The position numbers and the translations under genes are program-made. This document shows, piece by piece, positions 3,696 to 28,093 of a DNA stretch of 38,888 nucleotides. The stretch is taken from UHGV virus genome UHGV-0098678; one strand, given 5' to 3'. Each line of letters begins with the position of its first letter. The first letter of the stretch is position 1. Origin of the DNA: a virus. The notes beneath the pieces are model-generated. The model did not search any database, was not told the origin of the DNA, and saw only the letters and a list, made by a program, of their open reading frames with translations.

Positions 3696-6158
3696 TCAAT
3701 TCCCTGTTAATTGCAAAACTTGCTCTTCCAGCTTTTTAACCCTGCGTCTCATCATCGCAGATTCCAGAATCAGAGCCTCTTCATAACGGATACCGTAACA
3801 TTCACCAGCCTCGACGGCTTCGCGTACCAGAACCTTTGTCTGTATAAGTGGGTAAACTCCTGCAGAATGCTCTTCTTCCGTCACATCCCTGTATTCTGCC
3901 GGGGTCTCATTCCACTTGTCATAACAGATAAATGCCAGTCGTGACACATCTATGCCTTCATTCTGAAATACACTGATAACATGCTGCGCAACTGCACCAA
4001 AGTGCCATCTTGCTCCGTCTTTACCTTTCACTTCGATCCTGTCAAGGTACTGGTATGAAACCCATTCCACTCTTTCCCATGCGTCCAGTATTTTCTCATC
4101 AATAACCTCTGGAGCAGTCTTGAAACGCGCATCGGACAGCACCGTAAACGCTGACTGGGTAAATCCCCCCGACCATGCACGACCAGCCAACCCAAGAGAA
4201 TAAGTATTCGTTGTCGATGGTGTCATGGCTGAATCAGAAAACTGTATATATTCTGAATTTCCAGTAGATATTCGAATATTTCCATTTATTAGCGACATAG
4301 TGCCTTTAGTATTATCACTATTGAATAATTTCAATTGCGAACTTATACCGCCTCCCACAGCCAGAGATACATCGCCTTCAGCAAGCATTCTGAATTTATC
4401 TGCAGAAACAAGCGTCTGGTTAGCAAGGTTAAAATATTTAACCCACCATTCAAAACGCCCTGACATAGTCCCAACGTACTGACCAAGCGCAGGGACGTGA
4501 ACAACATTGCTATTTGTAGTGCCGTCTATACTGGAAATACCAGTCACCGCTGATGCAGAACTCAGAATATTATTTCTGTCACCCGGATGTTTAATTTCAA
4601 CAAAGTTCCTGATACACCCTTCCTCGAAGGTAACCACGCCGGAAGAACTATACATGGGGAATATTGACGCATAATTACTGCGTGCAGCATCTAAGAAACG
4701 AATGGTTGTAGATGTCTGCAGATCTCCTGATTCATTTTTCCCATCACACCCAGTCATTAGAATATTACTGGCAATATTATTATTTCCATGAACGGTGACT
4801 CCGTGCGCCTGCTTTGCGTCCGATTCAGAGTAATCAACCAGCACATTCGAAATCAGGTTACCAGTCCCCTTGCCAACAACTACTGCGGCGTATTTTGGGT
4901 TGTTAGCCATTACACTGCTAATGATATTATTCGTTGGGGCAGTTTCCGTCTCAGTTCCATTGTAAACAACGTGCTGACACTCTTCACCAATAACATTGCT
5001 GACAATGTTATATTTTGCTGCTGTTTTAAGTTCCACTGCACCAAACTGAGGATAATTTCTGGCTATCACACCATCAATTAGCGTATTTTGCGATGAATCA
5101 AAAAGCACACAACCTGCTTTTTTATTATTTGCGAACCCTAAATACTCTCCTCTTATATCTCTAACAATGTAACCTGACGGAATACCATTATTCGGATAAG
5201 CGATCAAGCTAAATCCTGTTCCTCGCGTATTTGTAAATCTGATATTTTTAACCGATACATCATGGCCACCTGAAAATGACACCTGGTGTCCCTGCACACT
5301 ATCATCTGATTTATTTCCCATAATTGTTAGCGTACTAAGCATGCCACCATCGGGCATGTTAAAAACCAGATGATTACCATCTCTGTCATACTGTTTTATC
5401 GTTCCCCCACCTGTTCCGTACAAGCCACAACGTGAAAGAGAAACTAAAGATGTATTGAATACCCCTTCCGGAACAAAAACACTGCTAAACGAATGTAATG
5501 ATTTTGTAAAAGCATCCTTGTTATCATTTAAGATTCCATTTTGAGCTCCAAAATCCTTAATGCTGACACCATCACGCATCTTATCCTGGAACGTTCTGTA
5601 TACCGCTCCAGAACCATACTGAATAAACCAACCAAAACCACCAATAACTCCGGCGATTGCAGCATCGACATAATTACGCATTGAGCGATTATTTACAGCG
5701 TCCTGCTCAAGTGATGGATCGGCAAGGTTAGATATTCTGTTTTGCTTTGCATCGTAATATTTTGCAAGCAAAGATGGTTTCATCAATGCACGTCTGAACC
5801 ACCCAAAACATCGCTGGATCAGCATCGTCAGGTAGTCAAATGCATCCTCATGAACTTCGGGGAAAAATTTTCCCTGATTGCGAAGATCAGTCTCCTGCAC
5901 CACATCAAGCACACGCTCTATCGTGATTCGCCAGCCAGCAGCAAGCGGCGACGGAAGAACCACTGCACCGCCACTATAAGTTCCCGCCCCTGTTACCGTA
6001 TAACCAGCATCCAGCACTAGTTTTGTAACGTTACCGTTAAGGTCAGACACCTGAACAACCAGGTCGGATTTTTTGAAAATACGGAAGGTATACGGAAATG
6101 ATGTCGTAACGCCGTTACCTGTGTATTCGTTGTGGTCAACTTCGGTTGAGACCGTCAT
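3696..6158 (-). CDS. tail fiber / tailspike with T7 gp17-like N-terminal adaptor, central beta-helix-like region and C-terminal S74-type intramolecular chaperone domain
   Basis: 820 aa. N-terminus (YTGNGVTTSFPYTF ... NRISNLADPSLEQDAVNNRSMRNYV) matches the T7 tail-fiber N-terminal domain pattern; C-terminus contains SDARFK and a coiled-coil tail typical of self-cleaving chaperone domains; SD GGAG 8 nt upstream of ATG 6158. Confidence 0.75.
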   Translation of the reverse strand: MTVSTEVDHNEYTGNGVTTSFPYTFRIFKKSDLVVQVSDLNGNVTKLVLDAGYTVTGAGTYSGGAVVLPSPLAAGWRITIERVLDVVQETDLRNQGKFFPEVHEDAFDYLTMLIQRCFGWFRRALMKPSLLAKYYDAKQNRISNLADPSLEQDAVNNRSMRNYVDAAIAGVIGGFGWFIQYGSGAVYRTFQDKMRDGVSIKDFGAQNGILNDNKDAFTKSLHSFSSVFVPEGVFNTSLVSLSRCGLYGTGGGTIKQYDRDGNHLVFNMPDGGMLSTLTIMGNKSDDSVQGHQVSFSGGHDVSVKNIRFTNTRGTGFSLIAYPNNGIPSGYIVRDIRGEYLGFANNKKAGCVLFDSSQNTLIDGVIARNYPQFGAVELKTAAKYNIVSNVIGEECQHVVYNGTETETAPTNNIISSVMANNPKYAAVVVGKGTGNLISNVLVDYSESDAKQAHGVTVHGNNNIASNILMTGCDGKNESGDLQTSTTIRFLDAARSNYASIFPMYSSSGVVTFEEGCIRNFVEIKHPGDRNNILSSASAVTGISSIDGTTNSNVVHVPALGQYVGTMSGRFEWWVKYFNLANQTLVSADKFRMLAEGDVSLAVGGGISSQLKLFNSDNTKGTMSLINGNIRISTGNSEYIQFSDSAMTPSTTNTYSLGLAGRAWSGGFTQSAFTVLSDARFKTAPEVIDEKILDAWERVEWVSYQYLDRIEVKGKDGARWHFGAVAQHVISVFQNEGIDVSRLAFICYDKWNETPAEYRDVTEEEHSAGVYPLIQTKVLVREAVEAGECYGIRYEEALILESAMMRRRVKKLEEQVLQLTGN

Positions 6159-6262: not shown

Positions 6263-6277
6263 TTACCTTTCAGGTAA
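6263..6277. promoter_or_regulatory. 15-bp palindrome TTACC-N5-GGTAA (putative repressor operator)
   Basis: TTACCtttcaGGTAA, extended palindrome aTTACC...GGTAAt at 6262-6278; about 40 bp upstream of the LexA box and antirepressor gene; same core as the site at 24915. Confidence 0.5.
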
Positions 6278-6658: not shown

Positions 6659-6751
6659 ATTTACATTGCACTCCTCTTGTGCCATAGTAATCAGGCACTG
6701 GCAAAATCCAGTGCCGGGATTGGTCTCCCGGATTACTACAGAGGCACATAT

Positions 6752-6771
6752 GCCGCATAAGCGGTTTTTTT
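6752..6771 (+). terminator. weak rho-independent terminator candidate
   Basis: Short GC stem (CCGC ataa GCGG) followed by seven T residues, about 140 nt downstream of the small antirepressor ORF. Confidence 0.3.
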
Positions 6772-6925
6772 ATGTGTAAAGCGCACCTATTCTATGGTGG
6801 GCTGTGTGGGGGCACCGAAAGGTGCGCCGGGTTCCTTTGTAGCCGGTAAGACCAACTCTGCACAGTTCACCACCATCTGATTGGTCTCAGCGGTGGTGAT
6901 TAACCTAACTACAAAGGTGATCGCC

Positions 6926-22630: not shown

Positions 22631-22927
22631 TCACTCCTGTTCACTGGCCTCTTTGGCCATCTTCAAATACTGTTCAGGGCAATGCGCCATAACGCGCTGA
22701 AACAGTTCCAGCGCCAGATTGCGTTGCCCCTCATTAAATGCCATAGCCATAGCGTCCATCGGTGAGATAGCGGAAAACACACGGCCTTTCTCCAGCACCG
22801 ACCAGACAACGCGACGCCCCTGTTCACTGCTCATGACAAAGCAAATGTCATCAATTTCACGCTGTGCCATGTCACGTTGCTTACGGGCGTTTTCTTCTTT
22901 CAGTTGATCGTCTTCGTAATCTGTCAT
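22631..22927 (-). CDS. hypothetical protein between portal and scaffold
   Basis: 98 aa; ATGA overlap with the portal stop; charged/helical. Confidence 0.45.
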   Translation of the reverse strand: MTDYEDDQLKEENARKQRDMAQREIDDICFVMSSEQGRRVVWSVLEKGRVFSAISPMDAMAMAFNEGQRNLALELFQRVMAHCPEQYLKMAKEASEQE

Positions 22928-24603
22928 TGTGATTGCCCACCCTGACCACTAACTGCATTCGCCATAGCTGACAAAACACTCGGATCCGAAGTTTTAGCTT
23001 CGCTTAGCGTCTTGGCACCCTGTGCCGCCGCCATCCCCATCGCCATCATTTGTTGCTGCTGTTGTTGCTGTGCCCGTTGCTGGCGAGCCTGCTCAACCTG
23101 TTCCTGCGGAACAATGACGGTTGGAGACACTCCGGACATATCAGCGAATGCATCGATCGCCTGATCAACGTTGAGTTTGTCGAGAGCTTCTGGTTTCGCT
23201 TGCGCAAGTTGACCAATGAAGTTGACCGTAGACGCCAGACTGGACAGGCCGATAGACTTCTGCGCCTGAGCCATGACGGAAATGTATTCGACCTTCAGGG
23301 GCATACCTTCCATCGCGTCAGGCGGTGGCGGCAGCATGTTTTTACGCACCATCATCGAGAAAGCGCGGTCAATGAGAGGATTAAGACATTCGTCGTTCAG
23401 ACGCTCCAGAACCGGCCCCAACATCAGAAGTTTTTCTTCTTTCATTTCGATCACCGCTTCAACAGGCATCGAGCGGGTATTGATGTTCTGCAACATCATG
23501 AACAGATCGACAAAGTAGGCGCTGTTAATGATTTGACGGGTGTCCTGAATGTCTGCCACCAAATCTGCTGTACTGGGGTTAACCAGATAAGCAGGCCTGA
23601 AACCATCCTGACCAGTAATCTGATCGATATACGTGATGTCGCCAGGAAGAAGGGAGGCACGCTGATTCTTGAGGGAAGTCGGAGCAACCATCGGCGGATT
23701 GGTGGCTTTATCAATCAACTGCGACTTGCGCTTCTGGAGAAGCTGCAATGCCTTAACAGGTCCAAGCGCCAGCATACCCGGGCATGATGATCCATAAACA
23801 TCTTCGCCGTTAACTTCCCAGCGCGGAGCCATAATTGGAAACTCATCGAATCCGGACTCACGCAACAACTTGTCGTTATCGCCACCAACCTCGTAATAAA
23901 CCGATTTGAATGGCTTGTTCTTGCTATCCAGCTTCGATGTATCGCGGTCAATGTTCGGGTAAACCGAATGCATCACTTCAATCCACTTCTCGTAGGTTCC
24001 GCTTTCCCACATGCTTTTTACGGATTCGCTGACGTTATTTAGCCCGAACTCCTGAACAAGCTGACGAACAGTCATAGAGAACTTGCGAAAACAGGTGTCC
24101 ACACTGCCACGAGGTGAGTTAGCCAGGTAGTAACTGCCTATCGGGAATGGCATTGTGCGAATGATGTCCTCGTCATCCTCCAGCACTGCCATTGCACCAG
24201 TGCTGTATGTGCCGAGGCTTCCGTATAACTGCGGCAGCGACTGATAGAGATTCGACTTATTGAACATATCGTTCATGCGGTTCTGCACCGCCTCAAGCCA
24301 CAACTTAACAGGGCCATAATCCATCATTTCAGGATCTGGCGTAGCCAGGCGAAACCACGGACGCGCGGGGCTTGTGATGCCTGACATCATGCCGCTGGCG
24401 AGAGTGCGCGCCGCCATAGTCCCGGTCGAATCAATAATGCGTGTATTGCGTCGATCGTTACGGTTAACCTCAGAAGTCAGAAAGCGGGAACCACGCGGGT
24501 TGATGTAATCACTCAACTCGCGCCAGTGCGGCTCGAACGACTGACGCTCGCTTTCAAGTTGTGCGAACTGTTTGTTCAATCGCTCTTTAGTTGTTTCCGC
24601 CAT
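22924..24603 (-). CDS. portal (head-to-tail connector) protein, T7 gp8-like
   Basis: 559 aa (T7 gp8 is 536 aa); C-terminal Gln/Ala/Met-rich tail (QQRAQQQQQQQMMAMGMAAAQGA) resembles the T7 gp8 C-terminus. Confidence 0.7.
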   Translation of the reverse strand: MAETTKERLNKQFAQLESERQSFEPHWRELSDYINPRGSRFLTSEVNRNDRRNTRIIDSTGTMAARTLASGMMSGITSPARPWFRLATPDPEMMDYGPVKLWLEAVQNRMNDMFNKSNLYQSLPQLYGSLGTYSTGAMAVLEDDEDIIRTMPFPIGSYYLANSPRGSVDTCFRKFSMTVRQLVQEFGLNNVSESVKSMWESGTYEKWIEVMHSVYPNIDRDTSKLDSKNKPFKSVYYEVGGDNDKLLRESGFDEFPIMAPRWEVNGEDVYGSSCPGMLALGPVKALQLLQKRKSQLIDKATNPPMVAPTSLKNQRASLLPGDITYIDQITGQDGFRPAYLVNPSTADLVADIQDTRQIINSAYFVDLFMMLQNINTRSMPVEAVIEMKEEKLLMLGPVLERLNDECLNPLIDRAFSMMVRKNMLPPPPDAMEGMPLKVEYISVMAQAQKSIGLSSLASTVNFIGQLAQAKPEALDKLNVDQAIDAFADMSGVSPTVIVPQEQVEQARQQRAQQQQQQQMMAMGMAAAQGAKTLSEAKTSDPSVLSAMANAVSGQGGQSQ

Positions 24604-24617
24604 TTCAATGACTCCGG

Positions 24618-24824
24618 TTACTGACCAAGCAGCGTTTTACCGCTGGTATTAGCAGTTGATGTGTCGCCCTGAGAACCGGTAAGCAGCGTAGAACTACGAC
24701 CAGCAGCAGCGCGACGGCGACGAGTTTCTTCGTCGCGGGCATCAACAACGGCGGCATCCTGCTCCTGTGGTGCTGCCTGAACTTCTGGTGTTGCAGGCAC
24801 TGATGGTGAGCTACCCATGCACAT
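24618..24824 (-). CDS. hypothetical small Ser/Thr/Ala-rich protein upstream of portal
   Basis: 68-aa ORF with ATG 24824 and GGAG 8 nt upstream; low-complexity sequence, so it could be non-coding. Confidence 0.3.
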   Translation of the reverse strand: MCMGSSPSVPATPEVQAAPQEQDAAVVDARDEETRRRRAAAGRSSTLLTGSQGDTSTANTSGKTLLGQ

Positions 24825-24914
24825 ATCAATGACTCCGTACGCAATTAAATTATTACCAATTTAACCACATATGATTTATTTATCGTAGACAGTTGACATT
24901 TAACGTGCGAATTA

Positions 24915-24929
24915 TTACCTTTCAGGTAA
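24915..24929. promoter_or_regulatory. 15-bp palindrome TTACC-N5-GGTAA (putative operator)
   Basis: TTACCtttcaGGTAA, same core as the site at 6263; a TTGACA hexamer lies 17 nt upstream (24893-24898); in the noncoding gap between the portal-side genes and the tRNA. Confidence 0.45.
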
Positions 24930-25251
24930 CCAAAGAGTTCATTCCGGTTACTAACCTGACTGGCTTGTCGTTAAATTGAACAGGTGGAGTGAGCTTTTAT
25001 TTTGAGCAGTACGGCGTATGGCACATGCGCCGATAGCGGTCTGGATGCGTTTAAGGGGCACCCTCCCTGGCTGTGGCAAACGAACCAGGTAGCCGGAATG
25101 TGCAAGTCGAGCGGTTTTATTCCGCGCACGGGGATTCACCATCCCGGCGATTCGGTGTGACGCCTCGGAAGAGACGAGGGTACAACGATGAGAGCATTTA
25201 TGGAGCCGCGACAAAGTGTGGCGCCTTAACAGGCTAAGTGCTCTCAGCGTT

Positions 25252-25328
25252 GTGGCATTAGCTCAGTTGGACAGAGCAACCGCCTTCTAAGCGGTTGGTC
25301 GCAGGTTCGAATCCTGCATGCCACGCCA
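25252..25328 (+). tRNA. tRNA-Arg (anticodon UCU)
   Basis: Hand-folded cloverleaf: acceptor GTGGCAT/ATGCCAC, D-arm GCTC...GAGC, anticodon stem ACCGC/GCGGT with loop CTTCTAA (anticodon TCT), 5-nt variable loop, T-arm GCAGG-TTCGAAT-CCTGC, discriminator G, encoded CCA. Confidence 0.85.
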
Positions 25329-25371
25329 GAATCACGCCTAAGGACCGTGATGCCAGAAGTTCCAGGGGCTT

Positions 25372-25414
25372 GGCGGTGATGGTTTCCCTTGAAGGACTAT
25401 CACCGCCCTTTTTA
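25372..25414 (+). terminator. rho-independent terminator downstream of tRNA
   Basis: Long stem GGCGGTGAT ... ATCACCGCC followed by CTTTTT. Confidence 0.6.
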
Positions 25415-25490
25415 CAGCAGGACGCCATTGCGATGACTTCATGCTGTAAACCAGTACAGCCACGGAAGGCATAACTCATTGCTTCCAGTT

Positions 25491-25516
25491 CGCCCGGTTC
25501 GCCGGGCATTTTTTTA
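25491..25516 (+). terminator. terminator/attenuator hairpin immediately upstream of the moron gene
   Basis: Stem GCCCGG ttcg CCGGGC followed by ATTTTTTT; ends about 10 nt before the SD of the 25527 gene. Confidence 0.5.
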
Positions 25517-25526
25517 AGGTGAGATC

Positions 25527-25949
25527 ATGAAAACAGCCGACATGCTAGCTAAATATCTAAATGAATGGCCGTGCAAATATGTACGCATTGTTCAGGGTGA
25601 TGACTCAATTTTTTATGGTGTTTTTGCAGGAAATGAAATGCTTTGTGAAGCAATTCCAGGTGAGCGACTTGCCGGGTTAACGCTTAGCGATGACCATGGA
25701 ATAGGAGTTACTTGCCATGACTGGATTTCAGCGCAGAAAACTGAAATGGAAAAAGGCAATGTGTTTGATATTTCTCGCGCTGTATACGCCAAAGAAAAAA
25801 GTGATGATGATTACATGCGCGAAAACTTATACAACATGAAGTTACAATGCCTGGCTGAAGTGCTTAGTAAAAGATCTTTACTTGATGTGGTTGGTGCTGA
25901 GCAGGACGCCAAGGCAATCAACGCCGCATTCGATAAAATAACCTTCTAA
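25527..25949 (+). CDS. hypothetical protein (moron, opposite strand to the structural operon)
   Basis: 140 aa; ATG 25527 with SD AAGGTGAG; flanked by terminators on both sides; no recognisable family. Confidence 0.55.
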   Translation: MKTADMLAKYLNEWPCKYVRIVQGDDSIFYGVFAGNEMLCEAIPGERLAGLTLSDDHGIGVTCHDWISAQKTEMEKGNVFDISRAVYAKEKSDDDYMRENLYNMKLQCLAEVLSKRSLLDVVGAEQDAKAINAAFDKITF

Positions 25950-25969: not shown

Positions 25970-25995
25970 AGCCCGCCGATTCGCGGGCTTTTTTA
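25970..25995 (+). terminator. rho-independent terminator
   Basis: Stem GCCCGC cgattc GCGGGC followed by TTTTTT; overlaps the stop codon of the convergent TerL gene. Confidence 0.65.
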
Positions 25996-27468
25996 TGCAA
26001 AAGGATCATAGTCTGTGATGGCTTTGCCTTGCTGGTTCTGCTGCCCAGGAATTCGCAGACGCTTCGACACAGGGAAAGCAAACGTCAGCAGTAGCGCATC
26101 GCCTTTACCCGGCGAACGCCCAAGCCGCTCCTTGATATCTTCCTTCGGTTCGATAACGATTTTACCGTCCACACGAACTTTGTACTCTGCTGCCGACAGG
26201 TCGTCCGCTGTTTCCTGGTCATCCAGCATGCCGCCGAGCCTCAGCCATGTCTTGCATGAGTTGAACATCTCCCCACGCTTGTTGAGCATCTGCGGGTCAG
26301 TAGACGCGCCACCGAACGGAACAAGTTGCCATGTACGACCCCAGCCGTCACCGATTGACTTCAGACCAGTTCCGTAACCGAAGTCGATGAACACTGCGTC
26401 AGCCTGGTACTGGTCTTCAAAGTCAGCGATACGCTTCGCCATAATCAGATCGTCAGTGGTCTTGTTGCCAGTCCACAGCACCTTACTGTGCAGCCCCTGC
26501 CGCAGGTATATCACAGCGTCATCAACGCCTGAGTATGCCGGGTCAACGCCGATTATCACCGGAGCATGTGCAACCTGCGCAGCGGTTACCACCCGTTTCA
26601 TTGCCTCGTCAGTAAGACCGGTAGGGATAAACTGCAATTCAGATGCATCAGGGAATATGCCGCGCACACGGATTTTAACGAAGTCGCTATCTTCCCCGTA
26701 GTCATCAACCCATTTCTGCAACTGCTGTTTGTTAGTGCCTTCCACCGTCCGGCTGTCAATCTGCGCAGTTTTCCAGCGGTGTTTATATTTGCGGAAACAT
26801 TCGCGGAAACGCCCGGTGTTACGTGTAGGGTTTCCGAACGCTACCCAGATAATCTCAGTGTCTTCGTCCGTAAGCGCACCCTCAGCAACTTCCCACACCA
26901 GATCCGCAATGTTCGACGCTTCATCGAATACCACGATGATGCGTTTGCGCTCGTTGTGTAGTCCGGCGAACGCCTCAGTGTTGTGCTCAGACCAGGGGAT
27001 TGCGTCAGCTCGCCACCGCTTGTCGTGCCCAGGGTCATTGCTGTACATCGCGGTAGCGGTACAGGTAAACCAGTCTTTCGTGATAGCAAGGTTCGACCAC
27101 TTGATAATTTCCGGCCAGGTCTTCGTTCGTAGCTGGTTGTCGGTGTTGGCGGTCACCACAACCTTACAATCCTCGCAAGTGGACATGCCCCAGTTGATCA
27201 GCATTGAGATGAATGCGGATTTACCAATACCGTGACCCGAAGCGCGTGCCAGCATAAGCGGCTGATAGCGCGTCTCTGGATTCTGCAGGTGATCACGTAT
27301 CTCTCGGAACGCATCAGCCTGCCACTGACGTGGACCGGTGGCATGTGCCAGTTCAGTCCCATCTTCCCCCCACGGGAACGCATAGAGGGCATAGCCAAGC
27401 GGATCGTGAGTGAACCCTGCAATATCCTCGATTAACTGCTCTTCAGGAGATAACGCTGTATCTGTCAC
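25993..27468 (-). CDS. terminase large subunit
   Basis: 491 aa; GTG start overlapping the TerS stop (GTGA); Walker A-like ARASGHGIGKS and acidic motif IIVVFDEASNI typical of TerL ATPase domains; C-terminal nuclease-like region. Confidence 0.8.
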   Translation of the reverse strand: MTDTALSPEEQLIEDIAGFTHDPLGYALYAFPWGEDGTELAHATGPRQWQADAFREIRDHLQNPETRYQPLMLARASGHGIGKSAFISMLINWGMSTCEDCKVVVTANTDNQLRTKTWPEIIKWSNLAITKDWFTCTATAMYSNDPGHDKRWRADAIPWSEHNTEAFAGLHNERKRIIVVFDEASNIADLVWEVAEGALTDEDTEIIWVAFGNPTRNTGRFRECFRKYKHRWKTAQIDSRTVEGTNKQQLQKWVDDYGEDSDFVKIRVRGIFPDASELQFIPTGLTDEAMKRVVTAAQVAHAPVIIGVDPAYSGVDDAVIYLRQGLHSKVLWTGNKTTDDLIMAKRIADFEDQYQADAVFIDFGYGTGLKSIGDGWGRTWQLVPFGGASTDPQMLNKRGEMFNSCKTWLRLGGMLDDQETADDLSAAEYKVRVDGKIVIEPKEDIKERLGRSPGKGDALLLTFAFPVSKRLRIPGQQNQQGKAITDYDPFA

Positions 27469-28078: not shown

Positions 28079-28093
28079 TTACCGTTGTGGTAA
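28079..28093. promoter_or_regulatory. 15-bp palindrome TTACC-N5-GGTAA (putative operator)
   Basis: TTACCgttgtGGTAA about 18 nt upstream of the proposed TerS start, just downstream of a - strand terminator hairpin. Confidence 0.45.

Follow-up and report, generated by a model that had tools for sequence, protein, structure and literature searches.

Several kinds of structured RNA invite comparison with the locus described here. GOLLD and ROOL RNAs are phage-encoded and lie near transfer RNA (tRNA) islands, and tRNAs sometimes occur within the GOLLD linker (PMC12286853). The put RNA of phage HK022 is ~70-74 nucleotides (nt) long, forms two stem-loops and is present at both pL and pR (PMC9378689). 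conAn2 is a large promoter-proximal RNA antiterminator (PMC8191782), and AgvB and AsxR are prophage-encoded anti-small RNAs of 51-60 nt at a moron site 3' of pR' (PMC4104026). We analyzed UHGV-0098678, a 38,888-nt prophage of the phiV10/epsilon15 type (Uetakevirus; the whole stretch is called the window below), in which positions 24,825 to 25,414 hold a tRNA-Arg(UCU) gene behind a long non-coding segment. This segment contains a structured RNA core of ~175 nt that recurs, mostly with no tRNA nearby, in temperate phages of Enterobacterales, P1 included. That the core represents a real, conserved and autonomous structured RNA family is in our judgment very probable.

Like GOLLD and ROOL, the RNA is encoded by phages and prophages, is ornate with pseudoknots, lies beside tRNA genes and is non-essential where this has been examined. 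As tRNAs are sometimes embedded in the variable linker of those RNAs, the present tRNA-Arg sits in a slot between a closing helix, P6, and the 3' hairpins. In contrast to GOLLD and ROOL, which measure 500-800 nt or more, the present core has ~175 nt, or ~250 nt with P6; it is restricted to Enterobacterales and lies directly behind repressor-controlled early promoters. It also differs in matching no Rfam model: Rfam 15 holds no family for the core, whether in a gathering-score scan of the window, at E ≤ 10 over 24600-25560, or at E ≤ 1 over the P1, mEp460 and Klebsiella loci, and the only families matched in these scans were tRNAs, C4 and isrK. No RefSeq feature covers the core at the 40 matches listed. 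Literature searches by sequence string and by topic, which covered few subscription journals, gave no published description of the RNA, so an earlier report is possible. We rate the RNA as a new family within known kinds of phage RNA.

Covariance model R1, run with filters off, detects a single copy in the window. The elements of the core, which include helices P1, P2, P4 and P5 and pseudoknots PK1 and PK2, are listed in Table 1. Base pairing was counted in two alignments, A3 with 32 diverse copies and A4 with 78 model-aligned copies. Standard pairs fill 96% of cells; sliding the 3' partners by 1-3 columns lowers this to 26-49%. Both sides change in 12-13 of 29 pairs. On four of five measures, none of 500 column shuffles reached the observed value. 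PK2 lies outside the model behind A4, yet its pairing changes from C-G to A-U in 9 sequences. PK1 is invariant, and the alignments are only consistent with its pairing rather than proof of it. The two hairpins quoted in the earlier note, GGGAT-tcacc-ATCCC (25131-25145) and CCTCG-gaagaga-CGAGG (25163-25179), are real and show compensatory changes in relatives, and the uncharacterized structured RNA that it suspected upstream of the tRNA corresponds to this covarying core. Two other structural models were rejected. The first long-range model from RNAalifold, in which GGC pairs with GCC around PK1, gave way to P1, which fits the G-C to A-U covariation (39 and 34 sequences), and a "P3" hairpin between PK1 and P4 was inconsistent among copies, this segment being a variable linker. 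The segments concerned in possible kissing of the P2 and P5 loops, or in pairing of the core with terminator T1, barely vary.

Over four phage lineages, copies of the core share 70-80% identity and show compensatory changes. Among ~165 columns, 65 are at least 95% conserved, a figure inflated by the gathering of copies through conserved sequence anchors; 68 of 74 distinct copies carry the 19-mer GGUAGCCGGAAUGUGCAAG without change, among them copies obtained with a different anchor. The core sequences are also related to one another, and A4, having been fitted to nested helices, is biased toward them. The slid controls, the unmodelled PK2 and the variants of P6 checked by hand are free of these caveats.

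Approximately 8% of cells are G·U, with one pair being U·G in 73 of 74 sequences. Because these pairs would be A·C on the other strand, the RNA is placed on the plus strand, that of the tRNA. Folding energy was discarded as a strand criterion since both strands score alike (z = -2.5 and -2.7). The region is non-coding, as had been proposed: whichever frame or strand is read, 59-100% of 68 variants contain stops, and the variable segments have lengths in all three classes modulo 3. Protein coding was rejected for want of a conserved frame, also for the minus-strand open reading frames (ORFs) annotated in mEp460 and TL-2011b. GenBank records of mEp460 (locus L009, 2443-2811, minus strand), TL-2011b (L003, 2159-2410, minus strand), Ayreon, JL22 and phiSTEC1575-Stx2k carry "hypothetical protein" coding sequences over the element or the tRNA, and these calls are most likely spurious.

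The simplest reading of the segment, and the minimal form of that in the earlier note, is a plain 5' leader of the tRNA with no function of its own, or else a site acting as single-stranded DNA or as a protein-binding DNA site. Its position upstream of the tRNA in the window would suit this, as would folding that is similarly favorable on both strands. The conservation and compensatory changes described above, in copies that mostly lack a tRNA, speak against it, as do the G·U cells and the constant co-orientation of the element with an upstream promoter and a downstream terminator. Conservation, independence from tRNA and covariation thus contradict this reading, and we consider it highly improbable. 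The description of the RNA as the leader of the tRNA in the earlier note does not hold either, since the module is independent. Among 131 copies, a tRNA-Arg lies immediately 3' in 31, a tRNA(CAT) lies immediately 5' in 17, and there is no nearby tRNA in 83; in P1 the tRNA is upstream, and the lambdoid copies follow cI. The tRNA is one of several interchangeable cargos.

The RNA is widespread. BLAST with the leader alone returns it in 88-92 phage records, and the core is present in 1,840 of 5,426 complete E. coli genomes, with 554 of its places on plasmids. Exact-pattern scans yielded at least 120 contigs in IMG/VR, and 23 stretches from species-representative genomes, nearly all of Enterobacteriaceae, plus Erwinia. 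R1 finds one full-length copy per phage; IMG/VR contig L028 (minus strand) has two tandem full copies, at 3987-4158 and 4794-4963 (167 and 129 bits), with AT-rich sequence after the 5' strand of P6 in the first copy.

Lambdoid, P1, Uetakevirus and Lastavirus phages all have this core, and its downstream neighbors are unrelated, which argues for autonomy. In lambdoid phages of the SfV/mEp460 type, including cdtI, Stx2c and Stx2a converting phages, a co-directional cI-type repressor gene has its stop codon ~115 nt before the element, which lies downstream of the cI terminator and of a TTGACA or TTGACC promoter set among operator-like repeats. Across Uetakevirus and six lambdoid context classes, copies lie 45-110 nt downstream of such hexamers. 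In P1 and P7, the core lies 11 nt after trnI and directly ahead of ban, within the C1-controlled ban operon, which in P1 also encodes a DicF-like RNA and three tRNAs; the P1 copy consists of the core only and is 2.4 kb from the promoter. The Klebsiella Lastavirus SopranoGao carries a full copy (L170, 2433-2609; 114 bits) downstream of the lysis cassette and near the genome end, with neither a cI gene nor a tRNA nearby; this context falls outside the early-promoter pattern.

At its 3' side the core is closed by P6. A best-duplex search over 156 copies found helices of 14-20 base pairs (bp); their CAAC...GUUG base is conserved, and many variants are fully compensated. The last pair of P6 in the window uses nucleotide +1 of the tRNA, so that RNase P would be expected to cleave at the foot of P6. 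The slot that follows is closed by a GUGG...CCAC stem and contains a tRNA-Arg (~50 loci), a multi-hairpin domain of 58-203 nt with compensatory changes in both arms, or nothing; ARAGORN and Rfam call no tRNA in the multi-hairpin domains. In mEp460 (L009, ~2731-2860; also L007, L017, L140, L074 and L137) the slot holds a tRNA-shaped domain. This lambdoid domain is built of a GUGGUGA/UCACCAC stem, a 5' hairpin GCGCA-GGCUGA-UGCGC, a variable middle and a 3' hairpin CCGG-AGAUCAGCA-CCGG, with compensatory changes in both hairpins. Of 150 copies of the core, 104 have the 5' base of T1, UUGGCGGU (TTGGCGGT), and 55 have hairpin H7, always 39-56 nt ahead of the terminator. Because both homologous pieces travel with the core across cargo classes, the module appears to be a self-contained RNA gene. 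An intrinsic terminator lies within 900 nt in 116 of 120 copies, the median position of the first one being +325 relative to the motif.

The tRNAs or tRNA-like domains at the borders would give the RNA defined ends through RNase P and tRNA 3' processing. Another explanation is a ribozyme that cuts itself or processes a polycistronic RNA beside tRNAs. The conserved pseudoknotted core speaks for it, as does the direct contact of 48 of the 131 copies with a tRNA gene, always on the same strand. The self-cleaving ribozymes of Rfam 15 give no match even at E ≤ 10, however, RNase P and ordinary tRNA 3' processing already explain the ends, and the 83 copies with no tRNA nearby do not fit, making this a quite improbable explanation.

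The divergent regulatory region between gp3 and the RNA unit includes an AT-rich block (~24845-24885) in which nearly every column is invariant in alignment A1 of six phages from E. coli, Salmonella and Klebsiella. The earlier note proposed a promoter with an operator palindrome upstream of the tRNA, and this is borne out by a TTGACA-17-TACCTT candidate overlapped by TTACCTTTCAGGTAA; TTGAC and ATTATTACCTTT are invariant across A1. A promoter scan suggests TAGACA-18-AATTAT (24886-24915) as an alternative. The palindrome is one of 13 TTACC-N5-GGTAA sites in the window (6031, 6263, 6644, 7685, 24915, 28079, 31905, 31967, 33913, 34250, 34298, 35010 and 35072), compared with 0.54 expected, and 0 of 100 shuffles reached this number. 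The sites cluster in the immunity region, in the ant/C4 region and upstream of the small terminase gene. The half-site AATTATTACC occurs 10 times in the window, compared with 2.2 expected, and a second copy lies within the AT-rich block, at 24848-24857. Because of these 13 like operators, and because the homologous site in epsilon15 is marked in its record as one bound by the repressor, the candidate promoter belongs to the phage repressor regulon. We infer a transcription start near it. The operators at 28079 (small terminase) and 24915 (gp3/portal) further suggest direct repressor action on structural-gene operons.

Taken together, the data lead us to propose that the region is one early transcription unit under the phage repressor, yielding a composite precursor RNA. 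From 5' to 3' the unit comprises the promoter/operator, the leader, the doubly pseudoknotted core, P6, tRNA-Arg(UCU), a small hairpin and T1. Core and P6, usually with T1, form an autonomous RNA module that moves horizontally between phages, with the tRNA as swappable cargo. Upon derepression the unit would be transcribed, and RNase P would cut at the foot of P6. This cut would release the mature tRNA, for decoding of AGA in the AGA-rich tailspike and ejection-protein genes, and also a stable structured RNA of ~320 nt. The freed RNA would then act itself, with a logic like that of GOLLD and ROOL; the likeliest partner for it to bind is some conserved component of Enterobacterales hosts. We put the probability of this whole statement, action in trans included, at roughly 40%. 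Early expression is favored by the operator regulon of the window, the C1-controlled ban operon of P1 and the promoter/operator arrangement in the six lambdoid context classes. In P1, knock-down by CRISPR interference at trnI, ban and dbn found these to be non-essential (PMC10695390). This supports the module being accessory rather than essential, as do accessory or anti-defense neighbors such as a Tad2-like ORF.

A number of observations weigh against this proposal. The genes next downstream are co-oriented with the element in every context. In the window, terminator T2 ends 11 nt before the start of the 140-aa ORF and leaves no room for a promoter of its own, so some read-through from the promoter of the RNA unit must occur, which suits a role in cis. 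The lambdoid element occupies the nutL/putL position, before a strong terminator and the long early-left operon, and no N-like protein was seen among the early-left ORFs of its lambdoid carriers. The P1 copy lacks P6 and a terminator and lies inside an mRNA. The anchor-based collection of copies and the fitting of A4, noted above, count on the same side.

These observations bring in a second explanation, in which the nascent core either modifies RNA polymerase, in the manner of the processive antiterminators put, EAR and conAn2, or helps transcription past T1 and T2 in some other way. The downstream genes, namely the accessory ORF, the lambdoid early-left operon and P1 ban, would then be reached only by transcripts from the repressor-controlled promoter. 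The distance of 45-110 nt from repressor-type promoters is compatible with this, and the pL-proximal position is that of putL in HK022 (PMC9378689). In 116 of 120 copies the intrinsic terminator is followed by co-oriented genes, T2 abuts the ribosome-binding site of the 140-aa ORF, the early-left ORFs show no N-like protein, and conAn2 provides a precedent for a large promoter-proximal RNA antiterminator (PMC8191782). Against an element acting in cis, each phage has a single copy with none on the pR side, whereas HK022 has putL and putR. The P1 copy is far from its promoter, with no strong terminator after it and in a non-essential operon, and the Lastavirus copy follows lysis genes. Transcription continuing beyond terminator T3 would be antisense to the large terminase gene. 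The module brings a homologous terminator along with it, which an antiterminator does not need, and epsilon15 retained T1, T2 and the ORF despite the loss of two thirds of the core. With the autonomous early RNA, this is one of the two best-fitting explanations; overall, we judge it unlikely.

The present RNA resembles put in being structured and directly 3' of a lambdoid early-left promoter, with terminators downstream and no N-like protein seen, but put lacks the size of the present core and its four helices and two pseudoknots. Membership in the put family was rejected on size, architecture and the two-site arrangement, and because R1 gave no significant match in the HK022 genome (best 5.3 bits, E = 2). 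A second copy on the pR side was found neither in mEp460 nor in the Stx2 phages, and R1 detects a single copy in the window. A lambda-type nut site was dismissed because there is no P5-like repeat (141 of 161 loci have no extra one) and no N-like ORF was seen downstream, and boxA in P6 because the string is not conserved. The boxB loop is GAAGA, which the P5 loop GAAGAGA only resembles. The conAn2 and EAR systems are from Gram-positive bacteria, and conAn2 has a protein partner; antitermination by the present core is only a hypothesis.

A third explanation is a sensor leader, like a riboswitch or T-box, in which termination at T1 and T2 would depend on whether a small molecule or a tRNA is bound to the core. 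The core is aptamer-like, with many near-invariant junction and loop nucleotides and two pseudoknots, and terminators lie downstream; one candidate lead is that the P5 loop GAAGAGA contains AGA, the codon of tRNA-Arg(UCU). However, T1 lies 190-230 nt past the core, with P6 and variable cargo between, and no alternative pairing of core and terminator was found. The downstream genes are unrelated across contexts, while riboswitch classes normally precede functionally related genes, and the P1 copy has no terminator. A sensor is therefore improbable, and a riboswitch in particular was rejected, as the core is followed by a tRNA, a tRNA-like RNA, ban or unrelated early genes, with the terminator ~200 nt off behind variable cargo.

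More broadly, and tentatively, the RNA may be a new functional class of Enterobacterales temperate phages, including P1, that works without a dedicated phage protein and whose slot delivers tRNAs or their mimics. It might then act in one of three modes: binding RNA polymerase for an antitermination unrelated to that of put, serving as an early-expressed decoy or sponge against a conserved host factor or an immune component, or assembling with itself as GOLLD and ROOL do. An RNA with two pseudoknots and 65 near-invariant positions has been absent from Rfam 15 and from RefSeq annotation despite the attention given to E. coli and P1 genomes, although its carriers include P1, Stx-converting and other lambdoid phages, phiV10-type phages and a third of complete E. 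coli genomes. P1 and mEp460 are genetically tractable, and the RNA lies mostly directly behind repressor-controlled early promoters and, in P1, deep in the ban operon. If it is an antiterminator, it would explain how early-left terminators are read through in lambdoid phages in which no N-like protein is found; if it acts in trans, GOLLD and ROOL would gain a counterpart in enterobacteria, in a system with easy genetics. A covariance model for the family would also clear spurious "hypothetical protein" calls in mEp460, TL-2011b, Ayreon and JL22.

Table 1. Features of the RNA unit and its surroundings, in window coordinates.
Feature	Position	Strand	Remarks
Portal gene	22924-24603	-	
68-aa gene (gp3)	24618-24824	-	
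AT-rich block	24845-24885	.	Divergent regulatory region between gp3 (-) and the RNA unit (+)
Candidate sigma-70 promoter	24893-24921	+	TTGACA 24893-24898, 17-bp spacer, TACCTT 24916-24921; read from sequence
Operator palindrome TTACCTTTCAGGTAA	24915-24929	.	Overlaps the promoter -10/+1 region
5' leader, ~80 nt	24930-25010	+	Weak hairpin 24944-24963; varies among phages; outside the conserved core
Conserved structured RNA core, ~175 nt	25011-25185	+	R1, 146.9 bits
P1 stem	25012-25016 with 25028-25032	+	CGGCR/YGCCG
PK1 pseudoknot	25021-25026 with 25098-25103	+	GCACAU in the P1 loop with AUGUGC
P2	25040-25044 with 25085-25089	+	UCYGG/CCRGG; variable distal part bears a conserved UCCYUKG motif at its tip
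Near-invariant 19-mer GGTAGCCGGAATGTGCAAG	25088-25106	+	
Variable linker	25107-25130	+	Between PK1 and P4
P4, 4 bp	25131-25134 with 25142-25145	+	Loop UUCACCA (family YUCACCA)
PK2 pseudoknot	25137-25140 with 25154-25157	+	CACC in the P4 loop with GGUG
P5, 5 bp	25163-25167 with 25175-25179	+	Loop GAAGAGA (family GAAGAGW)
P6 closing helix	25183-25252	+	CAACGAUGAGAGCA 25183-25196 with UGCUCUCAGCGUUG 25239-25252; variable tip
tRNA-Arg(UCU), argU type	25252-25328	+	CCA encoded; ARAGORN, Rfam
Hairpin H7	25331-25352	+	AUCACG-N10-CGUGAU
Terminator T1	25372-25413	+	14-bp stem, then CUUUUU; 5' base UUGGCGGU conserved
Spacer after T1, then T2	25414-25515	+	Conserved
Terminator T2	25492-25515	+	GCCCGG-UUCG-CCGGGC and U7; ends 11 nt upstream of the 140-aa ORF start codon
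140-aa accessory ORF	25527-25949	+	Hypervariable slot; co-oriented with the RNA unit
Terminator T3	25970-25994	+ only	3' of the 140-aa ORF
Large terminase gene	25993-27468	-	Stop at 25993

The tRNA is genuine, as the earlier note had read it, being the sole ARAGORN call in the window, tRNA-Arg(tct), and scoring 73.3 bits with RF00005 in the Rfam scan, against a gathering score of 29. It is followed by its own terminator, the hairpin and T-run of T1. Its status as phage cargo is confirmed by the presence of the same tRNA and flanks in free phage genomes: 931 bases around it are 98-99% identical to phiV10, O157 typing phages 9 and 10, TL-2011b and phiv142-3. Compared with argU of E. coli K-12, the phage tRNA has 13 differences in 77 positions; they fall in the acceptor stem, the anticodon stem, the D loop and the variable loop, while the T arm, anticodon loop and D stem are the same. 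The identity nucleotides for E. coli arginyl-tRNA synthetase are A20, C35 and U36, and all are retained in this alignment. A tRNA-Arg is already annotated in O157 typing phages 9 and 10, phiv142-3, SPN9TCW, SPC32H and Klebsiella phage ST512-KPC3phi13.3; the novelty lies not in the tRNA but in its place inside a conserved RNA module.

The suggestion that the tRNA supports translation of AT-rich morons stands in part. AGA is indeed enriched: across the window it accounts for 12.6% of Arg codons, a share that rises to 30% in genes below 45% G+C, and it is absent from the head, portal and terminase genes; the demand comes mostly from the tailspike and ejection-protein genes. Codon supply by the tRNA is plausible. 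Because the promoter bears a repressor operator, supply in the lytic phase is more likely than a helper role for genes expressed in the lysogen.

The 3' end of the module varies among relatives. Copies of the mEp460 type (L009, 2855-2925) have a CA-rich string, CACCACAACAGCCAC, just upstream of the terminator, which is absent from the window copy. It contains CACAACA, the GcvB target consensus (PMC4104026), and the 3' end of these copies might double as an Hfq-type sponge. Identity with AgvB/AsxR was rejected, as location and size differ and only this CACAACA-like string before T1 resembles the GcvB consensus; lambda PreS was rejected as belonging to a different locus. The epsilon15 locus (L002, 3523-3639) lacks the tRNA, and all that is left of the core is its 5' third, joined to the T1 loop; R1 finds this remnant as a truncated copy. 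In SPN9TCW (L004, 1841-2300) a 13-nt repeat, TTCCCTTGATGCT, occurs in both the P2 loop and the T1 loop, which thus share a motif. It appears that epsilon15 lost most of the core, P6 and the tRNA by deletion between such repeats.

At 6695-6877 (plus strand) the window has an isrK match (74.7 bits) adjoining a C4 antisense RNA (78.6 bits). This is the antisense immunity (ant) region of the P1/P7 type, flanked by the same operators at 6263, 6644 and 7685, and the isrK and C4 pair is also present in mEp460 (L009, 206-394).

The terminase and portal genes flank the region, as the earlier note stated in placing the tRNA between them, but the 68-aa gene and the 140-aa ORF also intervene. Its description of the upstream 430 bp as GC-rich fits 25000-25400 (55-58% G+C, with flanking genes at ~50-57%) and fails for 24800-24999 (37.5%). 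The stretch falls into three parts: the AT-rich regulatory stretch, the leader of ~80 nt and the conserved RNA, comprising core and P6. Beyond T1, the block at 25414-25455 holds an inverted repeat ACAGCA...TGCTGT (ACAGCAGGACGCCATTGCGATGACTTCATGCTGTAAACC) that is kept in relatives from E. coli, Salmonella (epsilon15 included) and Klebsiella, and the epsilon15 record annotates the hairpin homologous to T2 as a rho-independent terminator. T3 has no upstream A-tract and so terminates the plus strand only. Transcripts of the terminase gene can therefore run antisense across the ORF, the tRNA and the core, and such antisense transcription may lie behind the RNase III site marked for this spacer in the epsilon15 record.

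The 140-aa ORF has no match to a Pfam family and matches phrog_4846, which is of unknown function. The contents of the slot behind T1 and T2 vary between phages, while the orientation is always plus. Klebsiella phage ST512-KPC3phi13.3 (L005, 3197-3718) encodes a Tad2-like anti-Thoeris domain there (PF11195, 4e-26), epsilon15 (L002, 3704-4069) a member of phrog_322, and SPN9TCW (L004, 2326-2832) a protease/lipoprotein-like ORF.

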